Shown here piece after piece: positions 20,328 through 41,408 of a stretch of 64,000 nt of DNA. The notes under the pieces were generated by a model that made no database searches, was not told the DNA's origin, and saw only the letters and a program-made list of their open reading frames with translations. Source of the stretch: Proteobacteria bacterium UBA6156 (GTDB taxonomy: Bacteria > Pseudomonadota > Alphaproteobacteria > UBA2136 > UBA6156); contig DIUO01000010.1 of assembly GCA_002422365.1 (NCBI GenBank), positions 2,739 to 66,738 on the forward strand, read 5' to 3'. A program made the position numbers and the translations under genes. Each line of letters opens with the position of its first letter. Position 1 is the first letter of the stretch.

Positions 20328-20333
20328 TCGGGC

Positions 20334-23249: not shown

Positions 23250-23794
23250 TGTCCACCATCATCCTCCACGGCGGCCGCACGTCAATCAGCAATCCTTCTA
23301 ATCAGGCTTTCTACAAACTCATGGCCAGCCATGTGCCTCCCGGCGGCACTTGGCTGGGCTGCTACTTTGCCCGGCTGGAAGAAACGGAAGCGCTAAAATT
23401 CCCAGAAGATGCCGCCAAACTCCGCGCCGCCGCCGACCATGAAGTGAATATCGAACTCGCAACCGCCGATAATTTTATTCAACAGCTTCAGTCGGCCAGC
23501 GTCGTCTATTTCGCAGGCGGTAGTACCGAAGGTCTGCTCAACCAACTCTCCCATTGGCCAAATGTGCGCGAACATCTCCTGAAAGTCCCCGTCCTCGCTG
23601 GCTCCTCGGCGGGGATGATCATGCTCGGCCTCAGCGGGGTCGGCAACAAGGGCATTTACCAGGGCCTCGGTATCGTGCCGTTCCATATGCGCGTCCATCA
23701 CGGGCACCCAGACTACGCCCTGGCCGATGCCACCCCGCTCCCCACCCCAACCCTGGCGCTGGAAGAATCCCAATTCATCCAAATCTCAATCTAA
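23249..23794 (+). CDS. peptidase S51 (dipeptidase E)-like protein
   Basis: Its start overlaps the nuoD stop (TAATG). VVYFAGGSTEGLLNQL and VLAGSSAGMIMLG resemble the S51 GGNT and SAG motifs. Confidence 0.6.
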   Translation: MSTIILHGGRTSISNPSNQAFYKLMASHVPPGGTWLGCYFARLEETEALKFPEDAAKLRAAADHEVNIELATADNFIQQLQSASVVYFAGGSTEGLLNQLSHWPNVREHLLKVPVLAGSSAGMIMLGLSGVGNKGIYQGLGIVPFHMRVHHGHPDYALADATPLPTPTLALEESQFIQISI

Positions 23795-24687: not shown

Positions 24688-25191
24688 ATGAAGCTCACAT
24701 TCCTGCTCAGCTCAGCCTTGGCGCTTGCGGCGTTCGCAACCTCGTTGGCGTATGCCGAAAAACAGGCCATATGCAAAAAATTTTGCGGAGAAGAAGGCGC
24801 GCTCGTCTGTTGCCCAGGTGAATTTGGTTTCACCGATGACATTACCTCCAGCTATGAAACCCCCGCCCAGCGCTGCCAAACCATCCTGAATCAACCGGCG
24901 GTAGACCTCGACTCCTCGCTGTTAGACGAATTGAAAACCTGCAAGAATGTCGCGAAGCAGGAGAAAGAAGCCGCCGACGCCGAAGCCAAAGCCCTGGCCG
25001 AGCTGGAGGCCGAAAAAGCCAAACTGCGCAAAGAGAAAGCCCAGGCACAGGCCCAGCAGCAACCCCAACCCCAGCCACCCGCACAACCCGCCCCGGCCCA
25101 ACCGGCGCCCAATTTTGTCAACTTCACCAACTTCGGCGCCCAACCCGGAGAAATGCCGCTCATCCAAGACCCCTACAGCCAAAGCCAGTAA
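24688..25191 (+). CDS. secreted protein: Cys-rich N-domain, coiled coil, Gln/Pro-rich tail
   Basis: Signal peptide MKLTFLLSSALALAAFATSLAYA. EAKALAELEAEKAKLRKEKAQAQAQQQPQPQPPAQPAPAQPAP. Confidence 0.6.
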   Translation: MKLTFLLSSALALAAFATSLAYAEKQAICKKFCGEEGALVCCPGEFGFTDDITSSYETPAQRCQTILNQPAVDLDSSLLDELKTCKNVAKQEKEAADAEAKALAELEAEKAKLRKEKAQAQAQQQPQPQPPAQPAPAQPAPNFVNFTNFGAQPGEMPLIQDPYSQSQ

Positions 25192-25855: not shown

Positions 25856-26173
25856 ATGAAAAACTTGCAGCAAGCCACCCTCGCACAACTTCAGGCCTAT
25901 GTGGCGGAAGTCGAGCTGCGCCGTGGCTTTGCCGCCGAAACGGTGCAAGATAAATGCCTGCTGCTGGCCGAAGAAGTCGGCGAACTCTGCAAAGCTATCC
26001 GCAAACATCATACCAGCATCACCACCGCCACCGATGCCAAGCCGCAAAATGTGGCCGAAGAACTGGCCGATGTGCTGATGTACGTCCTTGCCATCGCCAA
26101 CAAAACCGAAATCAACCTTGCCGAAGCGCTCATCGCCAAAGAAACCAAAAACGAACAGCGGAAGTGGGCATAG
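25856..26173 (+). CDS. MazG-domain nucleotide pyrophosphohydrolase (small)
   Basis: 105 aa. LLLAEEVGELCKAIRK and VAEELADVLMYVLAIAN (EExxE/ExxD metal motifs). Confidence 0.75.
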   Translation: MKNLQQATLAQLQAYVAEVELRRGFAAETVQDKCLLLAEEVGELCKAIRKHHTSITTATDAKPQNVAEELADVLMYVLAIANKTEINLAEALIAKETKNEQRKWA

Positions 26174-26175
26174 CG

Positions 26176-26586
26176 ATGCGTATCGAATATCTCGACACTC
26201 ACGACGAACGCAGCGATGAGTTGTTGTTGGGGCTGCGTCAATGGAACAAGGATCGTGGATTCGAAGCCAAACCCAGCAAGTTCAGTGTAATGGCTTTTGA
26301 AGGTGATGTTCTTAAAGGTGGTGCCAGAGGCATTATTGAATTTAACTGGATGTTTATCCAGACAATGTATGTAAAAGAGCGGCTTAACGGGCTCGGCACC
26401 CGTATCTTGAAAGAAGTCGAAACCCATGCTCGTGCGCAGGGTATAACTGGAATTTCATTACTTACTGTCGATAAACAGGCTCCAGGTTTTTACCAAAAAA
26501 CCGGTTTTAAAAATTTTGCTACAATACCTGATTTTATAGATGGCCAAACCCGATATTATTTCATGAAGCGGCTGGATGGAAAATAA
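26176..26586 (+). CDS. GNAT-family N-acetyltransferase
   Basis: ATG at 26176, 2 nt after the MazG stop. MYVKERLNGLGTRILKEVETHARAQG...FYQKTGFKNF. AT-rich. Confidence 0.8.
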   Translation: MRIEYLDTHDERSDELLLGLRQWNKDRGFEAKPSKFSVMAFEGDVLKGGARGIIEFNWMFIQTMYVKERLNGLGTRILKEVETHARAQGITGISLLTVDKQAPGFYQKTGFKNFATIPDFIDGQTRYYFMKRLDGK

Positions 26587-26589: not shown

Positions 26590-26871
26590 ATGAAACCCTT
26601 CATATCCTCATACCCTCTTATCCTCATATCCTGCGCCTTGGCGCTCGCCTCATGTGCCCAGTTCGGCGGCCGCATTGTTCAAACCGGCCCGGGCACCTAC
26701 CAAATCACCCACGTCATGTACGCCAACTCCCCCGTCAAAGGCGTGCGGCAGGGCGTAATCGACCGCGCCACCGCCAAATGCGAAAAACAGGGCCAAACCT
26801 ACCAAAAAATCCGCGAAGAAATGGGCACCGCCGGCGCCCTCAGCTACACCCTCATGTTCACCTGCAAGTAA
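26590..26871 (+). CDS. small lipoprotein
   Basis: Lipobox LALASC after a hydrophobic signal. 93 aa. Confidence 0.6.
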   Translation: MKPFISSYPLILISCALALASCAQFGGRIVQTGPGTYQITHVMYANSPVKGVRQGVIDRATAKCEKQGQTYQKIREEMGTAGALSYTLMFTCK

Positions 26872-26886: not shown

Positions 26887-28203
26887 ATGTCCACACTCCC
26901 TCGCCTCAAACCCGAAGACAAATGCTTCCCCAACCTGTGCGGCACAGCCGACTGGGGCATTAAGGGATACGAACAACGCGGCGGCTACAAAGGCCTCAAA
27001 AAACTCCTCCAAACCCCGCAAACCGAACATATCGAAAAACTCAAGCAATCCGGCCTGCGCGGGCGCGGCGGCGCGGGCTTCCCTACGGGGATGAAATGGT
27101 CGTTCATGCCCCAACCGAAGCTGGACGAACGCGGCAAACCCATCCCGCTCGCCAAGCCCAGCTACCTGGTGTGCAATGCCGACGAAGGCGAACCCGGAAC
27201 GTGTAAAGACAGAGACATCCTCCGCTTCGACCCCCACACGCTGGTCGAGGGCATGATCGTCGGCTGCTACACCCTCAACGCCAAAGTGGGCTACATTTAT
27301 GTGCGCGGAGAGTACTACGACGAAAGCAGCCACCTCCAGCAAGCCATTAACGAGGCCTACAAAGCAGGCTACCTCGGCAAAAACATCCTCGGCACGGGGG
27401 TCGATTGCGACATCCACGTCCACTTGGGGGCAGGGGCCTACATTTGCGGAGAAGAAACCGCACTGCTGGAGAGCTTGGAAGGCAAAAAAGGCCAGCCCCG
27501 CCTCAAGCCGCCGTTCCCTGCCGGGTTCGGCCTTTACGGCTGCCCCACCACCATTAACAATGTGGAAACCATTGCCCAAGTCCCTCCCATCCTCAAAAAT
27601 CCGCTGGAATGGTTCACCCGCTGGGGCCGCCCGGGCAACAGCGGCACCAAAATTTTCAGCATTTCCGGCAGCGTGCACAAGCCCTGTAATATCGAGGCCC
27701 CCATGTCCATCCCGCTGCGCGAACTGATCGATGAATACTGCGGCGGCGTCATCGGCGGCTGGGAGAACCTCCAAGCCATCATCCCCGGCGGCAGCAGCAC
27801 GCCCATGCTGAATGCCGAAACCGCCAGCCGCGTGTTAATGGACTTCGACGCCCTGAAGGCCGAAGGCACCGGCCTCGGCACCGCCGCCGTGGTGGTCATG
27901 AACAAGCAAGTCGATGTCCTCCGCGTCATGACCCGCATCGCCGCCTTCTACCACCACGAATCCTGCGGTCAGTGCACACCGTGCCGCGAGGGCGTTGGCT
28001 GGGTCCACCGCCTCATGGAGCGCCTCACCCACGGCGAAGGCACTCTGGCCGAAATCGACCAACTCTACGCCCTCACCAAAAAAATCGAAGGCCGCACCAT
28101 CTGCGCCTTTGCCGACGGCGCCATGTGGCCCACCCAAGGCACCCTCAAGCACTTCCGGCACCTCATAGAAGAACGCATCAAAACCAAACAGCCCGCCGCC
28201 TAA
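26887..28203 (+). CDS. nuoF: NADH-quinone oxidoreductase subunit F
   Basis: [26 protein letters not shown] and [12 protein letters not shown] motifs. Confidence 0.96.
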
Positions 28204-28877
28204 TGCCCCGCACCCTCGCCCTCACGCTCCTCCTGGCCACCCTCGTGGGTGCTTGGGCCAGCGGCGCATGGGCGCAAGCCGCCACCCCCAGCCCCACCTT
28301 GGTTTCGGCGCTAGAATCCCGCCGCTATATCAACATGGATACCATCAACACCACCTTCCTATTGGCGGTCGTCAGCGGGGCGGGCGGCGCTCCCTCGCCC
28401 GAGGTCACACTCATGTACCGCGCCCAAATGGGCTTCATCGCCGCCCATCTCACTAAAGATCCCACCATCCCCGTGCCGAACTACGCCGCCTGCCTCCGCC
28501 CGTTTAACGGAGAAGAAAAATCCGTCACCTCCATCTGCAAAATCACTATGGACAAAATCATGCAGCGCCTCGCGGTCGCCCGCTCCACCAACCCAGAGTT
28601 TGTGGACTTCCTCCGCGTCTTCACCCTCTCCCAGCGCACCATTCTCGGCATCGGCCGCTATCTCAACCAGCAGTTTACGCCCGACGAACTCAACACCATC
28701 GCCTCCTACCACGCCTTCCGCCTCACGCAAGAAAAATCACCCCAGTGGCTCAAAACCTACCGCACGTGTATCGAAAGTAACTCCCAAACCATCACCTGCA
28801 AAAACCTGCGGCTAGAGAACCTCAGCGCCATGCTCACCCTCGATTACCTCAAAGCCATGAACGGAGTAACCCCGTAA
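28203..28877 (+). CDS. secreted hypothetical protein wedged between nuoF and nuoG
   Basis: ATG overlaps the nuoF stop (TAATG at 28201-28205) and its own stop overlaps the nuoG ATG (TAATG at 28875-28879). Signal peptide [26 protein letters not shown] is like the host genes. Confidence 0.6.
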   Translation: MPRTLALTLLLATLVGAWASGAWAQAATPSPTLVSALESRRYINMDTINTTFLLAVVSGAGGAPSPEVTLMYRAQMGFIAAHLTKDPTIPVPNYAACLRPFNGEEKSVTSICKITMDKIMQRLAVARSTNPEFVDFLRVFTLSQRTILGIGRYLNQQFTPDELNTIASYHAFRLTQEKSPQWLKTYRTCIESNSQTITCKNLRLENLSAMLTLDYLKAMNGVTP

Positions 28878-31156
28878 TGCCCACCCGCCCCGCCACGCCC
28901 AAAACCAAAGCCGCCCCCACCGCCAAGGCAGGCGCACCCGCCCAAGTGGTCACTTCCAACGTGCCGCCTGCCGCGCCCAGCCCCGCATCCCAAGCGGCTC
29001 CCGCACCGCTCCCCCCGGCACCAGAAGGCTTCCTCAACGTCTTCGTCAACGGCAATCTCATTCACGTCAAACGCGGCAGCACCGTCATGCAGGCCTGCAC
29101 CCAGGCGGGGGCCGAGGTTCCGTTCTTCTGCTACCACGAGCGCCTCTCCATCGCCGGCAACTGCCGCATGTGTTTGGTCGAGGTCGAAGGCATGCCCAAA
29201 CCCATCGCCTCCTGCCACTGGCCGATTGCCGAAGGCATGAAAGTCAAAACCGACAGCCCCCTCACCACCGAGGCCCGCAAAGGCACCATGGAAATGCTGC
29301 TCATCAACCACCCGCTAGACTGCCCCATCTGCGACCAAGGCGGCGAATGCACCCTGCAAGACCTCTCGGTGGCCTATGGGTCGGATAGATCCGCCTACCA
29401 CGAATTCAAACGCGCCGTAGACGACAAAGACATCGGCAGCAAAATCAAAACCGTGATGACCCGCTGCATCCACTGCACGCGCTGCATCCGCTTCGCCACA
29501 GAGATCGCCGGAGTCGAAGAAATGGGCGCCACCGGGCGCGGAGAAAACATGCAAGTCGGCACCTATGTCGAGCACGCCCTTCAAAGCGAGCTTTCCGGCA
29601 ACATGATCGACCTCTGCCCCGTCGGCGCACTCACATCGCGCCCCTACGCCTTCACCGCCCGCCCGTGGGAGCTTGTGCGCACCACCTCCATCGACATCCT
29701 CGACGCGGTGGGCACCCCGATAACGGTCGACAACCGCCACGGCCAGGTCATGCGCACCCAACCGCAAGAAAACGCCGCCATTAACGAAGAATGGATGACC
29801 GACGCCGCGCGCTTCAGTTACGACGCTTTGCACACCAACCGCCTCACCACCCCGCTCATCCGCCGGGGAGGCGAACTTCAGCCCTGCGGCTGGCCAGAAG
29901 CCTTCACCTCCGCCAAAACCGCGCTGGCCCAACCCGTGGGCGGTATCCTCGGTGCCATGGCCAGTGCCGAAGACGCCCTCAGCTTCAAAATGTTCTTCGA
30001 AAATACACTCACTAGTAAGATGTACGACTGCCGCCCCGCAGGCAGCCAACTCGAAGGCTTTTACACCTTCAACACCCCGCTGATAGAATTTGAAAACGTC
30101 GACGCCGTCCTCCTCGTCGGCTGCAACCCGCGCTTAGAAGCCCCGCTGCTCAACGTCCGCCTGCGCCGCGCCGTAATCCGCCGCCGCGTGCCCGTTGCCG
30201 CCATCGGGCCGGATATGGACCTCACCTACCCCCACCAGAACCTCGGCAACGCACCGGATGCCCTCGAATCCCTCGCCAAATCCAAATTTGCCGAAGTCCT
30301 GAAATCCGCGCAAAAACCCGCCATCATCCTCTCCGCCAGCGTGCTTACCCGGCCCGACGGCCCCGCCATTCTGGCAACTCTCGAAAAACTCGCCAAAAAG
30401 TTCGGAGTCCAAAAAGTACTACAGAACGGAGAAGGCTGGAACGGCCTCAACATCCTCGCCGCCACCGCAGGCCGCATCACCGCGCTGGATATGCAAGCCA
30501 AAGCCACCCCCACCGCCGCCATCCTCAAATCCTACCAAACCGGCAAAACCGAAACGCTGATAGTCTACGGAGAAGACACAATTCTGCCGGAAGACATCGA
30601 ACCCGACACCAAAACACGAAACACGAAACACCAAACACTTATTTATATCGGCACCCACTTAACCCCCTTGGCGCAAATGGCCGACCTCGTCCTCCCCGCC
30701 GCCGCCTGGACCGAAAAATCCGGCCTCTATGCAAACTGCGAAGGCCGCGTGCAACTGGCCCACGCCGCCGTGCCCGCACCCTTAAACGCTAAGGAAGACT
30801 GGAAAATCTTCCGCGCCTTGAGCGAAGAACTCGGCACCCCGCTGCCCTTCAACACCCTCGCTCAACTCCGCAGCCTGGTGGCCAACCAACACCCCGCCTA
30901 CCAAGCCGAAAACTGGAACCGCATAACCCGGCGCACCCAAACCCCAACGCCCAACGCCCAAAACCCAACACCCATCACCTCCAAACCCTTCCAACCCGTC
31001 ATAACTGATTACTATCTGCGCCTCGAATACCTCCGCCAATCGCCCACCATGCATAAGTGCCAGAGCGAGGTCGCCACCGCCAAACTCGGCACAACCGCCA
31101 CACCACCTACACCGCTGCTCCCCGGCAAAACCAAATCCTCCCGCAAGGCCGCGTAA
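28877..31156 (+). CDS. nuoG: NADH-quinone oxidoreductase subunit G (with ~50-aa Pro/Ala-rich N-terminal extension)
   Basis: CYHERLSIAGNCRMCLVEV, HPLDCPICDQGGEC, CIHCTRCIRF and CPVGALT. No alternative start lies near the 2Fe-2S domain. Confidence 0.95.
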   Translation: MPTRPATPKTKAAPTAKAGAPAQVVTSNVPPAAPSPASQAAPAPLPPAPEGFLNVFVNGNLIHVKRGSTVMQACTQAGAEVPFFCYHERLSIAGNCRMCLVEVEGMPKPIASCHWPIAEGMKVKTDSPLTTEARKGTMEMLLINHPLDCPICDQGGECTLQDLSVAYGSDRSAYHEFKRAVDDKDIGSKIKTVMTRCIHCTRCIRFATEIAGVEEMGATGRGENMQVGTYVEHALQSELSGNMIDLCPVGALTSRPYAFTARPWELVRTTSIDILDAVGTPITVDNRHGQVMRTQPQENAAINEEWMTDAARFSYDALHTNRLTTPLIRRGGELQPCGWPEAFTSAKTALAQPVGGILGAMASAEDALSFKMFFENTLTSKMYDCRPAGSQLEGFYTFNTPLIEFENVDAVLLVGCNPRLEAPLLNVRLRRAVIRRRVPVAAIGPDMDLTYPHQNLGNAPDALESLAKSKFAEVLKSAQKPAIILSASVLTRPDGPAILATLEKLAKKFGVQKVLQNGEGWNGLNILAATAGRITALDMQAKATPTAAILKSYQTGKTETLIVYGEDTILPEDIEPDTKTRNTKHQTLIYIGTHLTPLAQMADLVLPAAAWTEKSGLYANCEGRVQLAHAAVPAPLNAKEDWKIFRALSEELGTPLPFNTLAQLRSLVANQHPAYQAENWNRITRRTQTPTPNAQNPTPITSKPFQPVITDYYLRLEYLRQSPTMHKCQSEVATAKLGTTATPPTPLLPGKTKSSRKAA
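30607..30638 (+). repeat. Family D CA-rich microsatellite inside nuoG (D3)
   Basis: CACCAAAACACGAAACACGAAACACCAAACAC, read in frame as TKTRNTKHQT. Confidence 0.7.
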
Positions 31157-31159
31157 ACC

Positions 31160-31843
31160 ATGGAAAATCGCACCCCGCCGTATTACCAAAATTTTAGCAA
31201 TTCGCATTGTTTACAATGCTCGCTGCGTTCGGCGTTAGAATACTTTAAGCCGGAAAAGCTATGGACTTGGAAAGAGTTGGAAGATGTGTCGTTCAAGCGA
31301 GAAGGCCACGGTACTTGGCACATGGGTTTCCTCTCCCAACTGGGTAAACATGGATACGACGTCGTATGTATAGAAGATTTTAATCTGAAGGAATTTGTAG
31401 CCTCGCCCTCCGAGTACATGAAGACAACGCAATCGCCGGAATCCTTCGAATACGCGATGCAGGATATGGATATCGCGCACGAAGTGAAATGTTCCAAATT
31501 ATTGTTGGAAGCCGAAGAGCAGGGGCTTGCCGAACTTCATTATCGCAACTCAACCGCCGAAGATGTTCGTCATTATCTTAAAAACGGTTACCTCATTGTT
31601 TTAAATGTAAACAGTTCGGCATTATGGCGTCATGAAGGTTTTACAGGCCACTTCGTACTTATTTATAAACTGCTCGATGAAAATACGCTCTTAATTCACG
31701 ATAACGGCGGCATGAACGGCGACCAACCTACCGGGATGAATGCCATGAAAATGGAAATCGATTTTCTTATCCGCTGCGGCACCAGCGGAGATAAAACCAC
31801 CGGCTTCTATGCCATCCGTCCCAAACAGACTAAAAACAAGTAA
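31160..31843 (+). CDS. papain-fold / peptidase C39-like protein
   Basis: AT-rich. Q-x6-C (QNFSNSHC), a later GHFVLIY and IHDNG fit a Gln/Cys/His/Asp arrangement. The assignment is tentative. Confidence 0.5.
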
Positions 31844-31848
31844 GCCCC

Positions 31849-32898
31849 ATGGACCTCCTCACCCCCTACCTCTCCCTCCTCACCACGGAGAACCTCCTGA
31901 TGCTCGCCACCACCCTCGGCGTCATCCTCCTCATCGCCATTCCCGTTCTGCTCGGCATGGCCTACACCACGTGGTTTGAGCGTAAAATCCTCGGCTGGAT
32001 GCACCTCCGCCACGGCCCCATGTACGTCGGCCCCTTCGGCCTGCTGCAACCCATAGCCGACGCCGTCAAGCTGATGTTCAAAGAACCCTTCATCCCCGGC
32101 TCCGCCAACAAGGTCATGTTCCTGGTCGCGCCCATGATGGTCTTCATCCCCGCACTCCTCGCCTGGGCGGTCATACCTTTCGGAGAAAACCCGTTTACCG
32201 GCAGCCTCATGGTGCTGGCGAACGTCAACCTCGGCGTCCTCTTCATCCTCGCCATCACCTCAATAGAGGTCTACGGCATCCTCCTCGCAGGCTGGGCCTC
32301 CAACTCCAAATACCCGTTCCTCGGCGCCGTCCGCAGCGGCGCACAAATGGTATCCTACGAAGTCTCCATGGGCCTCATCGTCCTCGCCGTCATCCTGCTC
32401 GCGGGCTCCATGAACCTCGCCGAAATCGTCGCGGCCCAGCAAACCGTCTGGTTCTTCATCCCGGCCTTCCCGGCCTTCGTCATGTTCCTCATCAGCATTT
32501 TGGCCGAGTGCAACCGCCACCCATTCGACCTCCCCGAAGCCGAAGCCGAGCTCGTCGCCGGTTACAATACCGAATACTCGGCCATGGGCTTCGCGCTCTT
32601 TTTCCTCGGCGAATACGTCGCGATGATCACCATGTCTGCCTTCACCGCCATCCTCTTCCTCGGCGGCTGGCTGCCCCCGTTCAACATCGCGCCGTTTACC
32701 TGGATTCCCGGCCCCATCTGGCTGCTCCTCAAAATCGTCGCCGTCCTCTTCTTCATGGTCTGGGCACGCGGCACACTCCCCCGCTACCGGTATGACCAAC
32801 TCATGCGCCTCGGCTGGAAAATCTTCCTCCCGCTCAGCTTCGCCTGGCTGATAATTACAGCAATCGCCGTCAAACTTCTCGGTAACTTTGCGGCGTAA
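31849..32898 (+). CDS. nuoH: NADH-quinone oxidoreductase subunit H
   Basis: [40 protein letters not shown] and [13 protein letters not shown]. Confidence 0.96.
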
Positions 32899-32929
32899 TG
32901 GATAGAATTGAGGTATAAAAGAACCGACC

Positions 32930-33418
32930 ATGAAAACCACCGTCCGCATCGCTCGCCAATACCTCCTGATCGACATGATCAAAGGCTTCGCGCTCACTTT
33001 CCGTATGCTCTTCGCCAAAAAGTTCACCATCCTCTATCCCTTCGCCAGCACGCCCATCAGCCCCCGCTTCCGTGGCGAGCACGCCCTGCGCCGCTACCCG
33101 AACGGAGAAGAACGCTGCATCGCCTGCAAGCTCTGCGAGGCCGTCTGCCCCGCCCAGGCCATCACGATAGAGGCCGAACCCCGCGCCGACGGCTCCCGCC
33201 GCACCACACGATACGACATCGATATGGTCAAATGCATCTACTGCGGCCTGTGCGAAGAAGCCTGCCCGGTCGACGCGATTGTGGAAGGCCCCAACATGGA
33301 ATTCAGCGTGGAAAACCGCAAAAACCTCATCTACACCAAAGACATCCTCCTCGCCAACGGCGACAAACTGGAACCCACACTAGCCGAGCGCCTCAAGCGC
33401 GACGCCCCCTACCGTTAA
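32930..33418 (+). CDS. nuoI: NADH-quinone oxidoreductase subunit I
   Basis: Two 4Fe-4S motifs, [12 protein letters not shown] and [12 protein letters not shown]. Confidence 0.96.
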
Positions 33419-33432
33419 GCCTCTCTAAACTC

Positions 33433-33518
33433 GCACCGTTTCCCGGGCTGCGGCGGGGTAAGTTTTGGAACAAAACTTGGGCCCCCGCCCAGACCCGGGA
33501 TCTGGAAAATACCAGCAC
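33433..33518 (+). repeat. Family A hairpin element, copy A5
   Basis: Central stem AAGTTTT-GGAAC-AAAACTT (compensated relative to A2). Starts 15 nt after the nuoI stop. Confidence 0.8.
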
Positions 33519-33582
33519 GACCAATCAAATCCAAATTGAAGCATCCAACCTAGAAAGCAAGAAACCAAAAATATAAAATCAA

Positions 33583-33668
33583 GCACGGATTCCCGGACGG
33601 TGATGGGGTGCGATTTGGAACAAATCGCGGGCCCCCATCCCGATCCGGGATCTGGAAAATATAAGCAC
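33583..33668 (+). repeat. Family A hairpin element, copy A6
   Basis: Outer stem GATGGGG/CCCCATC (compensated relative to GGCGGGG/CCCCGCC). Second tandem copy in the nuoI-nuoJ gap. Confidence 0.8.
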
Positions 33669-33695
33669 GAATATAACTATCAAAACAGTGCGACC

Positions 33696-33990
33696 ATGGC
33701 CAACCCCCACTATGTCTACATCCTCACCAATCAGCGCCATACCGTATTTTACGTCGGAGAAACCGCCGACCTTCCCCAACGTCTTTTCCGCCACAACAGC
33801 GGCTTTTACCCCAACGCGTTCACTAAAAAGTACAATGTAAACATATTGGGTATATTATGAAGAACATCTCAATCTCCATACCGCCAAAGAACGTGAGCAA
33901 AAACTTAAACGCTGGCAGCAAGCCTGGAAAGCACAGTTAGTGACCGACTTTAACCCAGGCTGGCATGACTTAGGCGCCGATTTGGGTTAA
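33696..33990 (+). pseudogene. GIY-YIG nuclease family gene with +1 frameshift
   Basis: Frame 1 gives MANPHYVYILTNQRHTVFYVGETADLPQRL...KKYNVNIL, then stops at 33858. The +1 frame from 33850 gives VYYEEHLNLHTAKEREQKLKRWQQAWKAQLVTDFNPGWHDL. An extra G lies in the GGG run at 33848-33850. Confidence 0.7.
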
Positions 33991-33998
33991 AAACAACC

Positions 33999-34367
33999 AT
34001 GCCCACCAACTTCGCCCTCATCCAAGCCTTCCACCAACGGTTCGACCCGGTGAACGAGCACGGCGAAGCACTGGAATCCCTCCTCACGCGCCGCATGGCC
34101 TATATAACGGAAGAAGTCCGCGAAGCCGCCGCCGCCACCGAAGCCCTGCGCACCAACCCCACCAACCCCCAAGCCAAGGCAAACCTTGCCAAAGAGCTTA
34201 CCGACATCCTCCACGTCACCTACGGCTACCTGCACCTCCTGAACATCGACGCCGACGCCGCCTTCGCCGAAGTCCACCGCTCCAACATGTCCAAAACGCC
34301 CAACCCCCAGGGCAAAGCCATTAAAGGAGAAACCTACACCCCCGCCAACATGGAGAAATTTGTATGA
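33999..34367 (+). CDS. MazG-like/dimeric-dUTPase-like all-alpha NTP pyrophosphohydrolase
   Basis: RRMAYITEEVREAAAA, AKELTDILHVTYGYLHL and EVHRSNMSK. Its stop overlaps the next gene's start (ATGA). Confidence 0.6.
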   Translation: MPTNFALIQAFHQRFDPVNEHGEALESLLTRRMAYITEEVREAAAATEALRTNPTNPQAKANLAKELTDILHVTYGYLHLLNIDADAAFAEVHRSNMSKTPNPQGKAIKGETYTPANMEKFV

Positions 34368-34927
34368 TCTACATTATCTCCGGTGTCACGCGCAGCGGCA
34401 AATCAATACTCACGCGAAGGCTCCACCATAAATACGGGATTCCGTTTTTTCATCTGGATCACATGATGTTCGGCATGGTCAAAGCCTTCCCGGACTGCGG
34501 CTTCCAAGGCGACACCGACGATCTCGTCAAAGCCAAAATCCTCGGTCCAATGGTGGTAGGTATGTTGGAAGAAATGCACACCGATGGCGTTAGAGACTAC
34601 CTTGTAGATGGCGTGGCTTTGCTGCCAGCACACGTTACGCAGCTCACCACCCACTATCCCAGCGCTTTCAAAGCCTGCTGGCTGGGCTACCCGTCCGCTC
34701 AACAAGAGCAAAAATTCACCGACATCCGCAGCAATACCGCATCAGACGACTGGTTGAACCGCTACCCGGATGACTACGTGCGGAAAATCGTTGCTTACGG
34801 TATCGAAAAAAGTCTCACGCTCCAACAGCAATGCCAAAACGAAAATATCCGCTTTTTCGATACCGCCCAGAATTTCGAAACAACCCTTCAAGAGGCAGAA
34901 ACCTATTTATTGGAGGCAATTCAATGA
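34364..34927 (+). CDS. P-loop NTPase/kinase-like protein
   Basis: Walker A GVTRSGKS at the N-terminus. 187 aa. Its stop overlaps the NUDIX start (ATGA at 34924-34927). Confidence 0.6.
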   Translation: MIYIISGVTRSGKSILTRRLHHKYGIPFFHLDHMMFGMVKAFPDCGFQGDTDDLVKAKILGPMVVGMLEEMHTDGVRDYLVDGVALLPAHVTQLTTHYPSAFKACWLGYPSAQQEQKFTDIRSNTASDDWLNRYPDDYVRKIVAYGIEKSLTLQQQCQNENIRFFDTAQNFETTLQEAETYLLEAIQ

Positions 34928-35358
34928 CCGTCACCCCCACCGTCCGCGTCGGTGTCGGCGTTTGGATAATCCACGACGGAAAAGTGCTGATGAATTATCG
35001 CATCAAGCCCCACGGCGGCGGCACCTGGGCGCCTCCCGGCGGTCACTTGGAAATGAACGAAAGCTGGGAAGACTGCGCGAAGCGGGAAGCCATGGAAGAA
35101 GCAGGACTTCAAATTACCAATATTGAGCTTTTCGCCGTCACGAATGATATCTTCCCGGAATCCGGAAAACATTATGTTACCCTCCACATGCAGGCACACA
35201 GCAGCACCAGCGAATTTACCAATATGGAACCCGATAAGTATCAGCAATACGGCTGGTACAAGTGGGAAGAACTCCCTCAGCCCTCTTTGCCATCGGTAGC
35301 CAACCTGCTCCAGCAAAACAAAAAACCACCCTATCTCAACGAAAACACCAAACACTAA
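34924..35358 (+). CDS. NUDIX hydrolase
   Basis: NUDIX box GGHLEMNESWEDCAKREAMEEAGL. The last codons (ENTKH) are encoded by the D4 microsatellite. Confidence 0.85.
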   Translation: MTVTPTVRVGVGVWIIHDGKVLMNYRIKPHGGGTWAPPGGHLEMNESWEDCAKREAMEEAGLQITNIELFAVTNDIFPESGKHYVTLHMQAHSSTSEFTNMEPDKYQQYGWYKWEELPQPSLPSVANLLQQNKKPPYLNENTKH

Positions 35359-35380
35359 AAACTAAACACGAAAACACTAA
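35341..35380 (+). repeat. Family D CA-rich microsatellite (D4)
   Basis: GAAAACACCAAACACTAAAAACTAAACACGAAAACACTAA spans the NUDIX stop and ends 4 nt before the nuoJ ATG. Confidence 0.7.
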
Positions 35381-35384
35381 ACCC

Positions 35385-36026
35385 ATGCTCCCCGACCTCA
35401 TCTTCGCTCTCTTCGCCACCGGCATCCTCGTCGGCGCCGGCCTCATCATCGCCGCCCGCAACCCCATGCTCGGCATGCTCGGCATGCTGGTCACCTTCGT
35501 CAACGCGGCGGGGCTGTTTATCCTGTTCGGAGCCGAATTCCTCGGCCTCCTCCTCATCATGGTCTACCTCGGCGCCATCGCCGTCATGTTCTTGTTTGTA
35601 TTAATGACCATCGACCAGGAATTCTTCCAATTAAAGGACAAAGGCCGCGCCTATCTCCCCCTCGGCCTCATCACCGTGGGCGTTCTGGCGGCCGAGTTCA
35701 TCCTCGCCGCCAACTTCGGCCTCTTCAGCACCAACATCACCGTGCTCCCGGCAACCGAGCAACCCCAGAACATCGTCCAAATCGGCACCGTCCTCTTCAC
35801 CACCTACGCGCTGCCGTTCCAGCTCTCCGGGCTGGTGCTGCTCACCGCCATGGTGGGCGCCATTGTGCTCACCCACCGCCCGCGCCCGGGCGTGCGCCGC
35901 CAAAGCATTACGCAACAGGTGCTACGCACTAAGAATGAAGGCCTCACCATGACCAAACCCAAAACAGGGCAGGGCCTCGGCACCCAAACCGCCAAACACT
36001 GGAAACCCAAATCGGTGAGCAAATAG
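35385..36026 (+). CDS. nuoJ: NADH-quinone oxidoreductase subunit J
   Basis: ATG at 35385. [26 protein letters not shown] is canonical NuoJ. Confidence 0.9.
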
Positions 36027-36036
36027 GAGCCCAACC

Positions 36037-36351
36037 ATGTTTTATATGCTGACGCTTTCCCACGTTTTAACGTTCTCCGCCCTCCTCTTCACGCTGGGCC
36101 TGGCGGGCATCGTCCTCAACCGCCGCAACATCATCGCTATTTTAATGTGTATCGAGCTCATGCTCCTCGCCGTCTCCATCAACCTCGTCGGCACCTCCTA
36201 CTTCAGGGCCGATATCGCGGGCCAAATCGTCAGCATGTTCATTCTTACTGTTGCAGCGGCCGAGCTCGCCATCGGCCTCGCCATCGTCACCCTGTTCTTC
36301 CGTAACCGCGGCACAATCGAGATCGACGCCGCCGACCTGATGAAAGGCTAA
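36037..36351 (+). CDS. nuoK: NADH-quinone oxidoreductase subunit K
   Basis: [23 protein letters not shown]...[15 protein letters not shown]. Confidence 0.92.
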
Positions 36352-36355
36352 ACCC

Positions 36356-36667
36356 ATGAGCAACCACTCTGTCCTCACCACAACATGCCAAACGTCAAAC
36401 GACCGCGACGCACTCATCAAAGTCGCGCTATCAACTAAACTTGCGGCCTGTGTGCAAGTGTCGCAGGTCACAAGCCACTATGTCTGGCAAAACGAGCAAC
36501 AGCAGTCCGAAGAATATCTCCTCACATTTAAAACCCGCACCGCTTTAATCGAGAAACTCATTACAGAACTTAAAGCTGTGCATAGTTATAAAGTGCCAGA
36601 AATCATCGTGACGCCCATCACCGGCCTACCAGCTTATCTTCAATGGATCGACGAAAGCACCCAGTAA
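36356..36667 (+). CDS. cutA: divalent-cation tolerance protein CutA
   Basis: 103 aa. LAACVQV..., YVWQNE..., HSYKVPEIIVTPI is typical CutA1. Confidence 0.75.
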   Translation: MSNHSVLTTTCQTSNDRDALIKVALSTKLAACVQVSQVTSHYVWQNEQQQSEEYLLTFKTRTALIEKLITELKAVHSYKVPEIIVTPITGLPAYLQWIDESTQ

Positions 36668-36668
36668 C

Positions 36669-37106
36669 ATGATCACCTTCCTCAAATACCTCGGCGCCTT
36701 CTGCCTCTTTACCATCGCGGCCTCGCTGGCATTTTGCAGCGTGGGTGTCTATCAGGGCGTGCAAACCGCCAACCGTTACCTTGCGGGGGCCGACAACTAC
36801 ACCTGCCGCCAGTTTGTGTATGACCTCGAAAACCCCACCACCGACAAATTCGCCCCCCTCGCCATCGCCGCCATAGCCTATGGGGTAATGCCGAGGGAGG
36901 ACGGCGTTATCGACGACAACCAAACCGAAATGGAACACAAAGGTATCGAACCCGCCGTGCAAAAAGTGCTGGCACTCTGCAAAGGCAAGCCAGAGGCTCT
37001 TGTGCTCAACGTCTACGCCGCCAGCATCGCCAGCCCTACGGCCAGCCTCACCCAGCCTGTTGCGCCCGAACCCATCACTCCCGATACTCAAAACACTCAA
37101 AACTAA
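36669..37106 (+). CDS. hypothetical membrane-anchored/secreted protein
   Basis: N-terminal hydrophobic segment. Its C-terminal PDTQNTQN is encoded by microsatellite D5. Confidence 0.45.
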   Translation: MITFLKYLGAFCLFTIAASLAFCSVGVYQGVQTANRYLAGADNYTCRQFVYDLENPTTDKFAPLAIAAIAYGVMPREDGVIDDNQTEMEHKGIEPAVQKVLALCKGKPEALVLNVYAASIASPTASLTQPVAPEPITPDTQNTQN

Positions 37107-37125
37107 ACACGAAAAACAAAACAAG
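37086..37125 (+). repeat. Family D CA-rich microsatellite (D5)
   Basis: ACTCAAAACACTCAAAACTAAACACGAAAAACAAAACAAG. Confidence 0.6.
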
Positions 37126-37140
37126 AATAAAGGCACCCCC

Positions 37141-37677
37141 ATGCTCACCACACTCATCCGCTTCAACATCGCATTCATGCTCTCGCTCCTCTCCCTCGCT
37201 ATCGTTGGCTTTATCGGGCTGGTGTGCTGGCTCTATGCCTCCCAGCTTCTCAAGGCAAAATCCACCGTAACCTTCTTCACAACCACCACCTGCGCCCAAT
37301 TCCTCGCCGATGTAAAATCCCAGAATTCCACAAAAATCGAGCCCTACGTCACTCATTTCGAGACTCTCGACACCGAAGAAGTCGCCACGTTCGACAAACC
37401 CCTGTCCGAATCCGAAGCCGGATTCACCACCCTCATGCGGGGCTGCTACAAGCAACCAAACCACACCCTGCGGCAGATAATGCTGGAAGGCGAGGGGCGC
37501 AGCCTTGCGGCTCAGCTGACCGACCTGTACAACACCATCGATGGTGAACTGAAAACCCCCAACCCCATGGCGCCGGAGTTTTACATCAGCCCCACCGAAG
37601 TCATAAGCCCCACTCTCATGACACCTCCTTCCGAAGGCGCCGACGCAACCTCCAAGCCCGAAAAAACAAAAAACTAA
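37141..37677 (+). CDS. hypothetical membrane-anchored protein
   Basis: ATG at 37141. TM segment FMLSLLSLAIVGFIGLVCWLYA. Its C-terminal EKTKN is encoded by D6. Confidence 0.45.
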   Translation: MLTTLIRFNIAFMLSLLSLAIVGFIGLVCWLYASQLLKAKSTVTFFTTTTCAQFLADVKSQNSTKIEPYVTHFETLDTEEVATFDKPLSESEAGFTTLMRGCYKQPNHTLRQIMLEGEGRSLAAQLTDLYNTIDGELKTPNPMAPEFYISPTEVISPTLMTPPSEGADATSKPEKTKN

Positions 37678-37725
37678 ACACAAAAAACTAAACACCAAAC
37701 ACGAAACACTAAACACTAAAACACT
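37661..37725 (+). repeat. Family D CA-rich microsatellite (D6, longest copy)
   Basis: AAAAAACAAAAAACTAAACACAAAAAACTAAACACCAAACACGAAACACTAAACACTAAAACAC ends 8 nt before the nuoL ATG. Confidence 0.75.
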
Positions 37726-37733
37726 CCAAAACC

Positions 37734-39809
37734 ATGTCCCCTCTCGCGCCCCACATCGTTGCCCAACTCACCGCACTTGCAGTGCTGCTGCCTGCCATGG
37801 GCGCGCTGCTGGGGGCGTTCACGTTCCTGCTCTGGCCCACGCTTAAGGCTAAATTAGAGGCCCACGACGCCCACACCCACCACGAGCCCGAATCCCCCAC
37901 CGCACCCCCCATCGCCCACCACGCCGCCATGGCCCTCACCACCGGCAGCGTGCTGGCGGCGGCGGCCCTCAGCTGGTGGCTGTTTGTGGGGCTTAATACC
38001 GGCACCATCAGCCCCGCCACCACCCACTGGTTCACCTGGTTCAGCGCGGGCAGCTGGTCGGTAACGTTTGGCACCATGCTCGACAAACTCTCCGCCACCA
38101 TGCTCATCGTCGTCACCACCGTCTCGGCCTGCGTGCACGTCTACAGCTGGGGCTATATGGCCGACGACGTTGCAAAACGCCGCTTCTTCATCTACCTCTC
38201 CGCCTTCACCTTCGCCATGCTCATGCTGGTCACCGCGCCCAACCTCGCGCAAATGTTTTTGGGGTGGGAAGGGGTCGGCGTCTGCTCCTATCTCCTCATA
38301 GGCTTCTGGTATCACAAAGCCACCGCCAACGCCGCCGCCATCAAGGCCTTTATCGTCAACCGGGTGGCCGACGCCGCCATGCTCATCGGCCTCTTCATCC
38401 TCGTCCAAACCTTCGGCACACTCACCTATACCGAAATTTTCACTCAATTAGAGAACCAAACCCCCACCAGCCTCGCCACCTCCAGCCCCATTAGCCTGGC
38501 GGCCTTGCTGCTCTTCATCGGTGCTATGGGCAAATCCGCCCAGTTCGGGCTGCACACCTGGTTGCCGGACGCCATGGAAGGCCCCACCCCCGTCTCCGCC
38601 CTCATCCACGCCGCCACCATGGTCACCGCAGGCGTGTTCCTGCTCTGCCGTATGTCGCCACTGTACGAGGCCGCGCCGGATGTCCTGACTATCGTCGGCT
38701 GGGTCGGCGCCATCACCGCCCTGTTCGCCGCCACGGTGGGCCTCACCCAAACCGATATCAAACGCGTCATCGCCTACTCCACCTGCTCGCAACTGGGCTA
38801 CATGTTCTTCGCCATCGGCGTGTCGGCCTACCCCGCCGCCATGTTCCACCTCACCACCCACGCGTTCTTCAAGGCGCTGCTGTTCTTGGGCGCGGGCTCG
38901 GTCATCCATGGCATGCACCACGAGCAAAACATCTTCAAATACGCTTCCTCCGGTTACATCCTGCGCAAACTCCTCCCCGTCACCTATGTCCTCATGTGGC
39001 TGGGCAGCTTGGCGCTCGCCGGTATCCCGCCGTTTGCAGGGTTTTTCAGTAAAGACCTCATCATAGAATCCGCCTTCGCCGCCCCCGGCAACACCGGCAT
39101 CCCGCTCTATATCATTGGCACGCTGGCCGCCGCGCTCACCGCCATCTACGGCTTCCGCATCATCTTCATGAGCTTCCACAACCCCGCAAAAACCTCCGAA
39201 ATCGTCCACACCAAAACACCCAACACGAAACACCAAAACACGAAACACGAACACACCAGTACCCCCCACGAATCCCCCTGGACCATGCTCGCCCCCATGC
39301 TCCCTCTGGCCCTGGGTGCCGTGCTGGGCGGCTACCTGCTTAAAAATATGGGCACATTAGAATGGTGGAACGGCGCCATCGTCATCCACCACGCGCACAC
39401 GGCCCTGCATAACGCCCACCACATTCCCGGCTGGGCCAAGGCATTGCCGCTGGTGCTGGCTGTCTCCGGCATTGCGCTGGCGTTCTACCTCTTTGTGCGC
39501 CACCGCAACATTCCGCAGCGCATTGCGCAGGCCGTGCCCGCCGCCTACGCCTTCAGCTATCATAAATGGTATATCGACGAAGCCTATCAAGTCCTCTGGG
39601 TCAACCCCACCGCCAGCATCGCCGCCTTCTTTGCCGAGTGGGGAGACAAACGCAGCATAGATGCCCTCCTTAACGGCGGCGCCTCCACCGTCGCAGGCTT
39701 CGGCCAGTGGCTCCGCCAGGCCCAAACCGGCTACGTCACCCACTACGCCTTCGCCATGCTGTTGGCTCTCACCCTAGGCCTCGGCTATCTCCTCTGGAAA
39801 GTCATGTAA
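37734..39809 (+). CDS. nuoL: NADH-quinone oxidoreductase subunit L
   Basis: 691 aa. WEGVGVCSYLLIGFWY, GKSAQFGLHTWLPDAMEGPTPVSALIHAATMVTAG. Confidence 0.96.
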   Translation: MSPLAPHIVAQLTALAVLLPAMGALLGAFTFLLWPTLKAKLEAHDAHTHHEPESPTAPPIAHHAAMALTTGSVLAAAALSWWLFVGLNTGTISPATTHWFTWFSAGSWSVTFGTMLDKLSATMLIVVTTVSACVHVYSWGYMADDVAKRRFFIYLSAFTFAMLMLVTAPNLAQMFLGWEGVGVCSYLLIGFWYHKATANAAAIKAFIVNRVADAAMLIGLFILVQTFGTLTYTEIFTQLENQTPTSLATSSPISLAALLLFIGAMGKSAQFGLHTWLPDAMEGPTPVSALIHAATMVTAGVFLLCRMSPLYEAAPDVLTIVGWVGAITALFAATVGLTQTDIKRVIAYSTCSQLGYMFFAIGVSAYPAAMFHLTTHAFFKALLFLGAGSVIHGMHHEQNIFKYASSGYILRKLLPVTYVLMWLGSLALAGIPPFAGFFSKDLIIESAFAAPGNTGIPLYIIGTLAAALTAIYGFRIIFMSFHNPAKTSEIVHTKTPNTKHQNTKHEHTSTPHESPWTMLAPMLPLALGAVLGGYLLKNMGTLEWWNGAIVIHHAHTALHNAHHIPGWAKALPLVLAVSGIALAFYLFVRHRNIPQRIAQAVPAAYAFSYHKWYIDEAYQVLWVNPTASIAAFFAEWGDKRSIDALLNGGASTVAGFGQWLRQAQTGYVTHYAFAMLLALTLGLGYLLWKVM
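39207..39257 (+). repeat. Family D CA-rich microsatellite inside nuoL (D7)
   Basis: CACACCAAAACACCCAACACGAAACACCAAAACACGAAACACGAACACACC, read in frame as HTKTPNTKHQNTKHEHT. Confidence 0.7.
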
Positions 39810-41408
39810 ATGAATCATCTCCTCACCCTCCTCATCGCCCTCCCGCTGGCCAGCGCGCTGTTCACCTACGCCGCGCCCACGCGCTACACCAGGCAACTCG
39901 CCCTGGCCCTCAGCCTCATCCCGCTGGCCCTGTGCGTGCCCTTGTTCCAGCACTTCAACCCGGCCCAGCCTGGCTTACAGTTTACCGAGTCCCACGCCTG
40001 GCTCCCCGCCTTCAACATCACCTATGCACTGGGGATAGACGGCCTCTCCCTCCCGCTCATCGCCCTCACAGCGCTCCTCACCCCGCTTTGCCTCCTCGCC
40101 AGCTGGGGCGTCCAAAAAAATCCGCAGGGCTTTTTCGCCAGTTTTCTGGCATTAGAGGCCTTTGTCATCGGCGTCTTCGCCGCGCAAGATTTCATCCTGT
40201 TCTATCTGTTCTGGGAGGCCATGCTCATCCCCATGTTCCTCCTCATCGGCCTGTGGGGAGGCGAAAACCGCGTCTACGCCGCCCTCAAATTCTTCCTCTA
40301 CACCTTTGTGGGCTCCGTGCTTATGCTCATCGCGGGCCTCTGGCTTTACAGCATCACGGGTAGCTTTAGTCTGGAGCTCTGGCAAAACACCACCCTCACA
40401 CTCGGTGCCCAAAAGTGGCTGTTCCTCGCCTTCTTCGCCGCCTTCGCGGTCAAGGTTCCCATGTGGCCGTTCCATACTTGGCTGCCGGATGCCCACGTCC
40501 AAGCCCCCACCGCAGGTTCCGTCATCCTGGCGGGCGTGCTGCTCAAAATGGGGGCCTACGGCTTCCTGCGCTTTTGTTTGCCGATGTTCCCCGAGGGCTC
40601 CGCCTACTTCGCCCCCATGGTCTTCACCCTTTCCGCCGTCGCCGTGGTCTACGCCGCGCTGGTGGCCTATGTGCAAACCGATATTAAGAAGATGATCGCC
40701 TACTCCTCCGTCTCCCACATGGGCTTCGTCACGCTGGCTGCCTTTTCCGGCACGGTCACCGGCCTGCACGGCAGTCTGCTGGTCATGGTCAACCACGGCA
40801 TCGTCTCCGCCGGGTTGTTTTTGGGGGTAGGGGTCATTTACGAGCGCCTGCACACCCGCCAACTCGCCCACTTCGGCGGCCTCGCCAAAATCATGCCCGC
40901 CTATGCTTTTGCCATGATGCTCCTCACCCTCGCCGCCGTAGCCTTGCCGGGCACGAATAGCTTTGTCGGAGAATTCCTCGCCCTCATGGGCAGCTGGCCC
41001 ACCGCCCCCGTCTACACCGCCATCGCCACCTCCGGCGTGGTCTTCGGCGCGCTCTACATGCTCCACCTCTACCGTGGCATGTTCTTCGGCACGCCGTCCG
41101 AGACTGTCCACCACCATGTGAATGACCTCAAAGACCTCACCCCGCGCGAGTGGCTCACCTTCGCGCCCCTCCTCGCCCTCATCCCGCTGCTGGGCCTCAT
41201 GCCCTCACTGGTGCAAAACCTCTGGCAACAGCCGGTGCAGGCCATTTCGCAAGAATACCTCCCCGCCCTCCAAGCCCGCATCGCCCACCAACCCGGCATG
41301 CCGATAATTCTGCCCGAAGCCGAACCAGCCCCCGAGCCCGCCTCGACACCCCTAGCAACCCCCATCGTCTCGCAAACCCTAACCCCCACACCAACCACCA
41401 CTTACTAA
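39810..41408 (+). CDS. nuoM: NADH-quinone oxidoreductase subunit M
   Basis: Starts 1 nt after the nuoL TAA. FAVKVPMWPFHTWLPDAHVQAPTAGSVILAGVLLKMG. Confidence 0.96.
   Translation: MNHLLTLLIALPLASALFTYAAPTRYTRQLALALSLIPLALCVPLFQHFNPAQPGLQFTESHAWLPAFNITYALGIDGLSLPLIALTALLTPLCLLASWGVQKNPQGFFASFLALEAFVIGVFAAQDFILFYLFWEAMLIPMFLLIGLWGGENRVYAALKFFLYTFVGSVLMLIAGLWLYSITGSFSLELWQNTTLTLGAQKWLFLAFFAAFAVKVPMWPFHTWLPDAHVQAPTAGSVILAGVLLKMGAYGFLRFCLPMFPEGSAYFAPMVFTLSAVAVVYAALVAYVQTDIKKMIAYSSVSHMGFVTLAAFSGTVTGLHGSLLVMVNHGIVSAGLFLGVGVIYERLHTRQLAHFGGLAKIMPAYAFAMMLLTLAAVALPGTNSFVGEFLALMGSWPTAPVYTAIATSGVVFGALYMLHLYRGMFFGTPSETVHHHVNDLKDLTPREWLTFAPLLALIPLLGLMPSLVQNLWQQPVQAISQEYLPALQARIAHQPGMPIILPEAEPAPEPASTPLATPIVSQTLTPTPTTTY

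Follow-up and report, generated by a model that had tools for sequence, protein, structure and literature searches.

Why should three genes for a MazG-like pyrophosphohydrolase, a P-loop kinase and a NUDIX hydrolase lie chained together between nuoI and nuoJ, in the middle of the operon for respiratory complex I? We address this question for a stretch of 64,000 nucleotides (nt) from Proteobacteria bacterium UBA6156 (GCA_002422365.1, contig DIUO01000010.1, positions 2,739 to 66,738), which we call the window and number from its first letter. A preliminary description had read the three genes as pointing to a dedicated nucleotide-processing pathway, with sanitation or turnover of a modified nucleotide, signalling-nucleotide turnover and nucleotide-depletion phage defence as candidate roles, and as lying beside what read like the scar of a mobile insertion. 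Our data point to a more ordinary answer: the cassette probably consists of functional housekeeping passengers that are co-transcribed in the nuo operon, and it is best read as an extreme case of the unidentified reading frames (URFs) of alphaproteobacterial nuo operons. The cassette and its flanks are as follows.

32930-33418, + strand: nuoI, upstream flank (4Fe-4S Pfam families on the identical gene in metagenome contig L006).
33999-34367, + strand: gene A, MazG3, a DR2231-type all-alpha MazG-like nucleoside triphosphate (NTP) pyrophosphohydrolase of 122 amino acids (aa), assigned from profile matches and its acidic motif.
34364-34927, + strand: gene B, a 187-aa P-loop kinase whose family is uncharacterised (Walker A motif, AlphaFold model, homologues).
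34924-35358, + strand: gene C, a NUDIX hydrolase of NUDT15/AtNUDX1/MutT type, 144 aa (NUDIX Pfam match, 1.1e-19).
35343-35384, + strand: an A/C-rich heptamer run, (AAACACN)n, repeat family D5, which covers the last NUDIX codons and the nuoJ leader.
35385-36026, + strand: nuoJ, downstream flank (Oxidored_q3 on the identical gene in L006).

Inspection of the open reading frames (ORFs) confirmed exactly the three ORFs and the tight translational chaining that had been described: the stop and start codons overlap in ATGA at 34364-34367 (MazG/kinase) and at 34924-34927 (kinase/NUDIX), and a GGAG lies 9 nt 5' of the kinase start and a GGAGG 8 nt 5' of the NUDIX start, each inside the preceding gene. 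The NUDIX ORF has an in-frame ATG further upstream at 34831, yet gene callers and homologues begin at 34924. The flanking proteins are well conserved, NuoI being 91-93% identical to its relatives and NuoJ 78-88% identical to its close relatives. The three domain assignments also proved correct (Pfam, Walker A, AlphaFold model and Foldseek). Against the sister genome L015 the ratio of nonsynonymous to synonymous substitution rates (dN/dS) is 0.31 for MazG and 0.14 for NUDIX, with 0.15 for NuoJ, and the kinase ORF is intact in the relative L178 at 64% identity. Therefore, the dN/dS values together with the family matches identify the cassette ORFs as genes and not chance ORFs, and all three, judged by their sequences, evolve as working genes under purifying selection. 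The claim that the cassette has a lower GC content than the flanking nuo genes holds for two of its members: GC and third-position GC (GC3) are 0.50 and 0.61 in the kinase and 0.52 and 0.63 in NUDIX, while MazG, with 0.60 and 0.78, lies in the GC3 range of the nuo genes (0.76-0.87).

The comparison with relatives separates the histories of the three genes. The exact kinase protein is found on 11 contigs, all of one organism and all with the gene order of the window. Thus the triad was seen as a unit only in the contigs of one species, and the relatives hold gene A alone, A with C, or A with B. In at least 10 further genomes of the clade a MazG gene, 37-78% identical to that of the window, occupies the nuoI/nuoJ junction (loci L013, L015, L016, L017, L019, L098, L178, L179, L181, L182 and L183). 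The arrangements around this junction are listed here.

nuoI-MazG-nuoJ: L013/L018 (metagenome-assembled genome, MAG, QFOU01), L179, L181 and L019.
nuoI-(x)-MazG-NUDIX-nuoJ: L015, L016, L098, L182 and L183.
nuoH-NUDIX-nuoI-MazG-nuoJ: L017.
nuoG-NUDIX-nuoH, with nuoI and nuoJ adjacent: L184.
nuoI-MazG-71aa-kinase-nuoJ, no NUDIX: L178.

The order nuoI-MazG-nuoJ is kept even in the distant L019, an 'Alphaproteobacteria bacterium' MAG in which NuoJ is 45% and MazG 37% identical. This synteny shows, at the level of gene order, that MazG has long resided between nuoI and nuoJ in the clade, and its native GC3 of 0.78 is consistent with such a history. Among the relatives the NUDIX gene is found at three nuo junctions, which shows it, as far as the compared sequences go, to be a recurrent guest of the operon whose position varies. 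The kinase is shown by the same comparison to be restricted to two lineages, L178 being the only place outside the species of the window where it was found in a nuo operon; in the one more distant locus that was read, a 36%-identical kinase in a planctomycete-like context has neither MazG nor NUDIX nearby. A further comparison is with L015, which shares its sample of origin with one of the contigs of the window's own species and whose NuoI is 100% identical over 103 aa. L015 has no kinase, and the MazG stop and NUDIX start share a single ATGA, TTTGTATGACAACC. At the same point the window reads TTTGTATGA-[kinase]-TTCAATGACCGTC, a 560-nt gene with an ATGA at each end. We infer that the kinase was inserted at the MazG/NUDIX ATGA, rather than lost from the relatives.

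Gene A matches the Pfam families PRA-PH (3.8e-13, 50.1 bits against a cut-off of 21.3) and MazG (1.1e-05, 26.1 bits against a cut-off of 22), and its nearest solved structure is DR2231 of Deinococcus radiodurans (1.7e-14), aligned over the full length. The EExxE...ExxD metal-binding site is present as E38, E39, E42, E66 and D69; among 29 MazG3 homologues E39 and E42 are invariant and the other three residues are at least 90% conserved. On these sequence features MazG3 is a member of the all-alpha NTP pyrophosphohydrolase superfamily (MazG / PRA-PH / DR2231-like). DR2231 is referred to as acting on dUTP, and as specific for it, in titles and citing text (PMC10014863, PMC5122711), and dUTP is our best guess, by homology only, for the substrate of MazG3. 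The two proteins are alike in their acidic metal-binding residues, in size class and in full-length alignment, but their identity of about 35-40%, estimated by eye from the alignment, is such that the specificity may differ. They also differ in context: MazG3 is embedded in nuo, whereas none of the family members read outside the clade adjoins nuo (about 150 loci from Nitrospirota, actinomycetes, marine single-cell alphaproteobacteria and others). Among the Nitrospira-type loci (L021-L177, read to about 2.5 kb on either side) between 37 and 54 have the MazG3 homologue beside panC-, RmuC- and HPPK (folK)-like ORFs; these neighbours (pantoate-beta-alanine ligase-, RmuC- and folK-like) were named by eye without a profile search and come from one lineage, and are thus a lead and not evidence. 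A role in a pterin branch is a possible alternative to dUTP cleavage, the NUDIX protein of the window being closest to AtNUDX1-type enzymes.

The NUDIX protein carries the complete Nudix box GX5EX7REUXEEXGU, GHLEMNESWEDCAKREAMEEAGL, with G40, E46, R54, E55, E58, E59 and G61. It aligns over its full length with the Rickettsia felis MutT structure 4kyx (6.2e-28), with Arabidopsis NUDX1 (2.5e-27) and with human NUDT15 (about 1e-22), and its bacterial homologues are labelled 8-oxo-dGTP diphosphatase or NUDT15 by their sources. From these enzymes it differs in its operon context and in reaching no equivalog model of NCBIfam at cut-off. Gene C is therefore placed by its sequence in the NUDT15/MutT1-like group of NUDIX proteins, with a substrate that is only predicted.

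Gene B is the least familiar member of the cassette. It has the Walker A motif GVTRSGKS, and its AlphaFold2 model is a confident one (predicted local distance difference test score 96.6, predicted template modelling score 0.91). Foldseek places the model with adenylate, shikimate and gluconate kinases at probability 1.0, with a template modelling score of about 0.55-0.6 and an identity of 10-18%. Searches against curated families gave no Pfam match at E <= 0.01, NCBIfam matches only far below threshold and no PADLOC match. A word-indexed search found a single homologue and an exhaustive search 648 representatives, most of which stand alone and are about 185 aa long. Across the family G7, G12, K13 and D32 are invariant and R10, K117 and W130 nearly so. 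The protein resembles kinases of the nucleoside monophosphate (NMP) kinase fold in Walker A, in the five-strand parallel core and in the helical inserts at the NMP-binding and LID segments; it is unlike them in the low structural score, in identity and in lacking a curated family match, and the conserved R10, D32, K117 and W130 of its own family are not accounted for by these relatives. The model thus presents gene B as a real P-loop kinase of predicted NMP-kinase-like fold with no specific tie to nucleotides. Assigning it to a family of known substrate was tried and rejected: profile searches against PDB, Pfam and NCBIfam (74 family members for the last two), as well as Foldseek, ended at the superfamily level (AAA_33, AAA_18, CPT, Zeta_toxin). 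Weak sub-threshold matches to 2-phosphoglycerate kinase and mevalonate-3-phosphate 5-kinase models appear in 4-5 of the 74 family members.

Taken together, we consider it likely that the cassette is a set of functional housekeeping passengers in the nuo operon of an uncultivated alphaproteobacterium. The evolutionary anatomy in this reading is highly probable, and the biochemical roles, proposed by homology, are evenly poised between right and wrong. The cassette would most likely be transcribed by read-through from the nuo promoter, constitutively with complex I; we infer this co-transcription from the junction spacing and from the promoter- and terminator-like sites of 32800-35500, which show no excess over the shuffled expectation. 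The ATGA overlaps, with the Shine-Dalgarno-like GGAG and GGAGG in the preceding genes, would serve for translational coupling or re-initiation. Gene A would convert (d)NTPs to (d)NMPs and pyrophosphate, with dUTP as the best-guess substrate, gene C would cleave oxidised or non-canonical (d)NTPs, and gene B would phosphorylate some small molecule or nucleotide. Genes A and C would act independently in the house-cleaning of the nucleotide pool, with no need for a joint three-gene pathway. The history would run from an old MazG at nuoI/nuoJ, through a roaming NUDIX guest, to a kinase that was then inserted at the ATGA shared by the two.

Several points weigh against this reading. The argument for nuo co-transcription is one of gene spacing, and the nuoI-MazG spacer of about 580 nt contains two strong hairpins and one weak promoter-like site (33551-33579), so a separate or attenuated transcript of the cassette is possible. 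The distance of MazG3 from DR2231 may mean a different enzyme specificity. The relatives were gathered mostly with cassette proteins as bait, and the sample thus does not give the clade-wide frequency of MazG at the junction; of the four loci found without MazG bait (L178, L182, L183 and L184) three have it there. The kinase follows MazG in two lineages, an adjacency that we treat as coincidence or shared descent and that could mean a functional link. Finally, the nucleotide-related guests of these operons are numerous (three MazG types, NUDIX, two unrelated P-loop kinases and a pyrophosphatase fragment), and this set looks less random than pure hitch-hiking predicts.

How unusual is such a cassette for a nuo operon? 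Non-nuo URFs have been known in alphaproteobacterial nuo/nqo operons since the 1990s, namely URF1-6 of Paracoccus denitrificans and urf1-7 of Rhodobacter capsulatus. The guests of the window are likewise non-nuo genes on the same strand, tightly packed between consecutive nuo genes, and the cassette fits this type, its same-strand non-nuo ORFs lying between nuo genes and recurring in related genomes. The difference from the classical URFs is one of extent: the window has about 16 intact guests, about twice as many, including three MazG-like genes, NUDIX and the kinase. A search of the literature for nuo operons that contain MazG, or that are heavily interrupted, turned up one relevant paper, on urf7 in the nuo operon of R. 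capsulatus (PMC9036352). The preliminary description knew of no system with the exact architecture of the triad, and we too found none described elsewhere. The operon and its other guests are listed below.

18867-42905, + strand: whole nuo (complex I) operon, nuoA-nuoN (Pfam on ORFs, junction distances, called genes on the identical contig L006).
19217-19696: GNAT acetyltransferase.
21547-21939: MazG-like gene, MazG1, before nuoD.
23249-23794: S51-like gene.
23810-24562: alpha/beta hydrolase.
24688-25191: guest, no family named.
25856-26173: second MazG gene, MazG2, after nuoE.
About 26179-26586: second GNAT.
26590-26871: guest, no family named.
28203-28877: guest, no family named.
31160-31843: X227, 227 aa.
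36356-36667: CutA.
36669-37106: X145.
37141-37677: X178.

The operon extends over about 24 kb, holds 14 nuo genes, about 16 intact guests and a GIY-YIG pseudogene at about nine junctions, most of them overlaps or gaps of at most 15 nt, and is followed by birA and RNase J genes. The three MazG-like genes (21547-21939, 25856-26173 and 33999-34367) are mutually very divergent. Guests that recur at the same junctions in relatives are MazG2 (82%, 70% and 39% identity), X227, X145 and CutA, and the relatives have guests of their own: DUF805, RidA, T5orf172, a methyltransferase, an AAA_18 kinase and a pyrophosphatase-like ORF. The T5orf172 nuclease-type gene lies between nuoE and nuoF in L184 (2767-3351), the inorganic-pyrophosphatase-like ORF (112 aa) between nuoJ and nuoK in L181 (9087-9425), and the AAA_18 P-loop kinase between nuoG and nuoH in L179 (5872-6453). 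That the last is the kinase of the window in another place was considered and rejected, as there is no detectable homology and it must be an independent recruit. The two GNAT guests have GC3 values of 0.32 and 0.40 against about 0.8 in nuo genes, and this low GC3 suggests a recent foreign origin. The taking-in of guest genes is thus a habit of the whole clade, of which the cassette is one example and no singular island.

The spacer upstream of the cassette holds the features that had invited the idea of a mobile insertion.

33424-33541, + strand: family A repeat, copy 1 (repeat families D1/D4/D9/D10), a long hairpin of the repetitive extragenic palindromic (REP) type with no T-run after it.
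33574-33691, + strand: family A repeat, copy 2 (repeat search, consensus folding).
33696-33990, + strand: small frameshifted GIY-YIG nuclease pseudogene (Pfam GIY-YIG, 1.5e-08, on its N-terminal part).

Both repeats and the decayed nuclease gene are present as had been described. Three-frame translation places the N-terminal 54 aa of the nuclease at 33696-33860 and the C-terminal 42 aa in the next frame at 33862-33990. The frameshift is identical in all six assemblies, which come from different samples, and it is therefore not a read error. Two small GIY-YIG-like coding stretches resembling the pseudogene lie also at 58380-58643 (- strand) and 62809-63087 (+ strand), so this type of nuclease is multi-copy in the genome. 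Family A, an element of about 85-118 nt, has copies at 3321-3438, 4171-4288, 7436-7553, 9401-9518, 33424-33541, 33574-33691 and 55691-55808 and diverged copies near 46099-46172 and 51116-51200, all in intergenic spacers and in one orientation throughout. Its consensus folds into one hairpin of 26 pairs, 10 of which have compensatory double changes (8 copies), and by sequence and predicted fold it looks like a structured element resembling REPs or miniature inverted-repeat transposable elements (MITEs). No Rfam family reached the gathering score in the window, the family A hairpins included, no tRNA was found in the window as a possible integration site, and no convincing intrinsic terminator was found near the hairpins, which could modulate the transcript despite the lack of a T-run.

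With this evidence the other explanations can be weighed. It is distinctly unlikely that the whole block was carried into nuo by an insertion of homing or MITE type, of which the GIY-YIG gene and the repeats would be the traces. One would argue for it from the frameshifted nuclease and the two hairpin repeats directly upstream, the lower GC3 of the kinase and NUDIX, the presence/absence polymorphism of the kinase with its exact boundary, and the nuclease-type T5orf172 gene in the nuo operon of L184. However, the composition of MazG is native, and its synteny extends to relatives in which neither GIY-YIG nor the repeats are present there, the sister L015 has a different ORF of 89 aa in the spacer between nuoI and MazG, the nuclease is short, inactivated and of a multi-copy type, and the repeats are also found at seven or more places that have nothing to do with the cassette. 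All copies of the triad, moreover, belong to one species and lie at one site, and the nuclease is frameshifted in all six assemblies. A mobile origin fits the kinase and the GIY-YIG/repeat spacer and not MazG; the 'scar' fails for the block as a whole, of which only the kinase, and possibly the GIY-YIG/repeat stretch, is lineage-specific. A recent phage origin was also considered and rejected: in PHROGs, MazG and NUDIX fell into generic families and the kinase had no match; among 50,697 phage records tblastn found nothing that matched the kinase, and for MazG no more than 46% identity along half of the protein; and Foldseek against viral models found nothing nearer than generic kinases. Very unlikely, in turn, is that the three genes make up a single pathway of three steps acting on a non-canonical or signalling nucleotide, or a phage defence by nucleotide depletion, in spite of the tight ATGA chaining, the kinase that follows MazG in two lineages and the weak match of NUDIX to the PADLOC candidate PDC-S07 (8e-12). 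This match was the only one when the three proteins and the guest between nuoG and nuoH were scanned with PADLOC-DB 2.0, MazG and the kinase having none, and it is weaker than the match of the same protein to the NUDIX Pfam family. The distribution contradicts the proposal, because the triad occurs in one species only, NUDIX moves independently of MazG, and the distant planctomycete-like kinase locus lacks both partners; so does the setting, since an essential housekeeping operon, with purifying selection like that on nuoJ and long-range synteny, is unlike a defence island. Both findings that the preliminary description had itself named as counting against its proposal were thus made: the triad is not conserved as a unit, and MazG and NUDIX are well-characterised house-cleaning families.

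Two further explanations turn on the operon itself. That the cassette encodes accessory subunits of complex I, or factors for its assembly, could be argued from the conserved position of the genes within a structural operon, but MazG3 and NUDIX retain intact catalytic motifs of soluble enzymes (NTP pyrophosphohydrolases and NUDIX hydrolases), their families occur widely with no link to nuo, and the URFs of the R. capsulatus nuo operon are reportedly dispensable for complex I; we hold this to be highly improbable. Rather unlikely, as we see it, is that the nuo operon of this clade is a selected expression platform, in which MazG and NUDIX, and perhaps the kinase, would scale with complex I as a source of reactive oxygen species (ROS) for the sanitation of (d)NTPs. 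Such a coupling would agree with MazG3 staying at nuoI/nuoJ over the deep divergence to L019, with a second MazG type conserved after nuoE and a third before nuoD, with a NUDIX gene that switches junction yet remains in the operon, and with the AAA_18 kinase and pyrophosphatase-like ORF of the relatives, which are nucleotide-related as well. Against it stand the many unrelated guests (GNATs, CutA, DUF805, RidA, hydrolases, methyltransferase), the MazG3 family members of Nitrospirota, actinomycetes, marine single-cell alphaproteobacteria and others, which are not found beside nuo, and a sampling biased by the cassette-protein bait. A joint reading, in which the nuo sanitation platform arose across the clade from a MazG fixed at nuoI/nuoJ by repeated recruitment of further MazG paralogues, a MutT/NUDT15-type NUDIX and P-loop kinases, and MazG and the kinase form a functional module, we likewise rate as rather improbable. 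No plasmid-borne copies of MazG were found. We keep to the housekeeping passengers as the preferred reading of the cassette.

Several other observations were made in the window. The heptamer run next to nuoJ is one of many: AAACACN runs lie at 14663-14719, 20293-20349, 30612-30668, 35343-35399, 37091-37147, 37690-37746, 39214-39270, 57042-57098 and 60937-61005, and also in L015 at 1380-1436. They stand just 5' of many start codons (nuoC, nuoJ, X178, nuoL) and, within coding regions, give rise to NTKHQ-like low-complexity inserts, as in NuoG, DTKTRNTKHQTL, and NuoL, NTKHQNTKHEHT; they may represent a leader peculiar to the clade, or else a microsatellite in expansion. The coding (+) strand has a strong and even excess of C over G, with a GC skew of about -0.2 to -0.4 in nearly all segments examined (28000-41000) and the same excess in nearly every gene of 18867-46052, the exceptions being low-GC guests with a skew near zero or positive. 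A tandem 18-nt repeat of about 10 units (52878-53057), which in a by-eye reading would encode a PMEAPM-like peptide if in frame, adjoins a 413-aa minus-strand ORF (53167-54408), just upstream of it. Near the window end two 102-nt direct repeats (63138-63239 and 63326-63427) are 95% identical and 188 nt apart.

The ordinary reading given here, if right, chiefly corrects an over-interpretation, in that the striking overlapping cassette beside a nuclease scar would be neither a new defence system nor a new nucleotide pathway. The locus documents an unusually crowded complex I operon, in which about 16 intact guests share 24 kb with the 14 nuo genes, and a MazG-like gene that is retained at nuoI/nuoJ across alphaproteobacterial MAGs, for which we found no describing paper. 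The kinase, placed exactly at a 4-nt stop/start overlap with both neighbours undisturbed, is a natural example of an operon accepting a passenger, and its family of at least 648 representatives with a confident predicted fold deserves to be flagged. If coupling to respiration were true, the stoichiometry of respiratory gene expression would be linked to mutation avoidance, and a sanitation platform would tie the removal of damaged (d)NTPs firmly to how much of the main ROS source in respiration is present.

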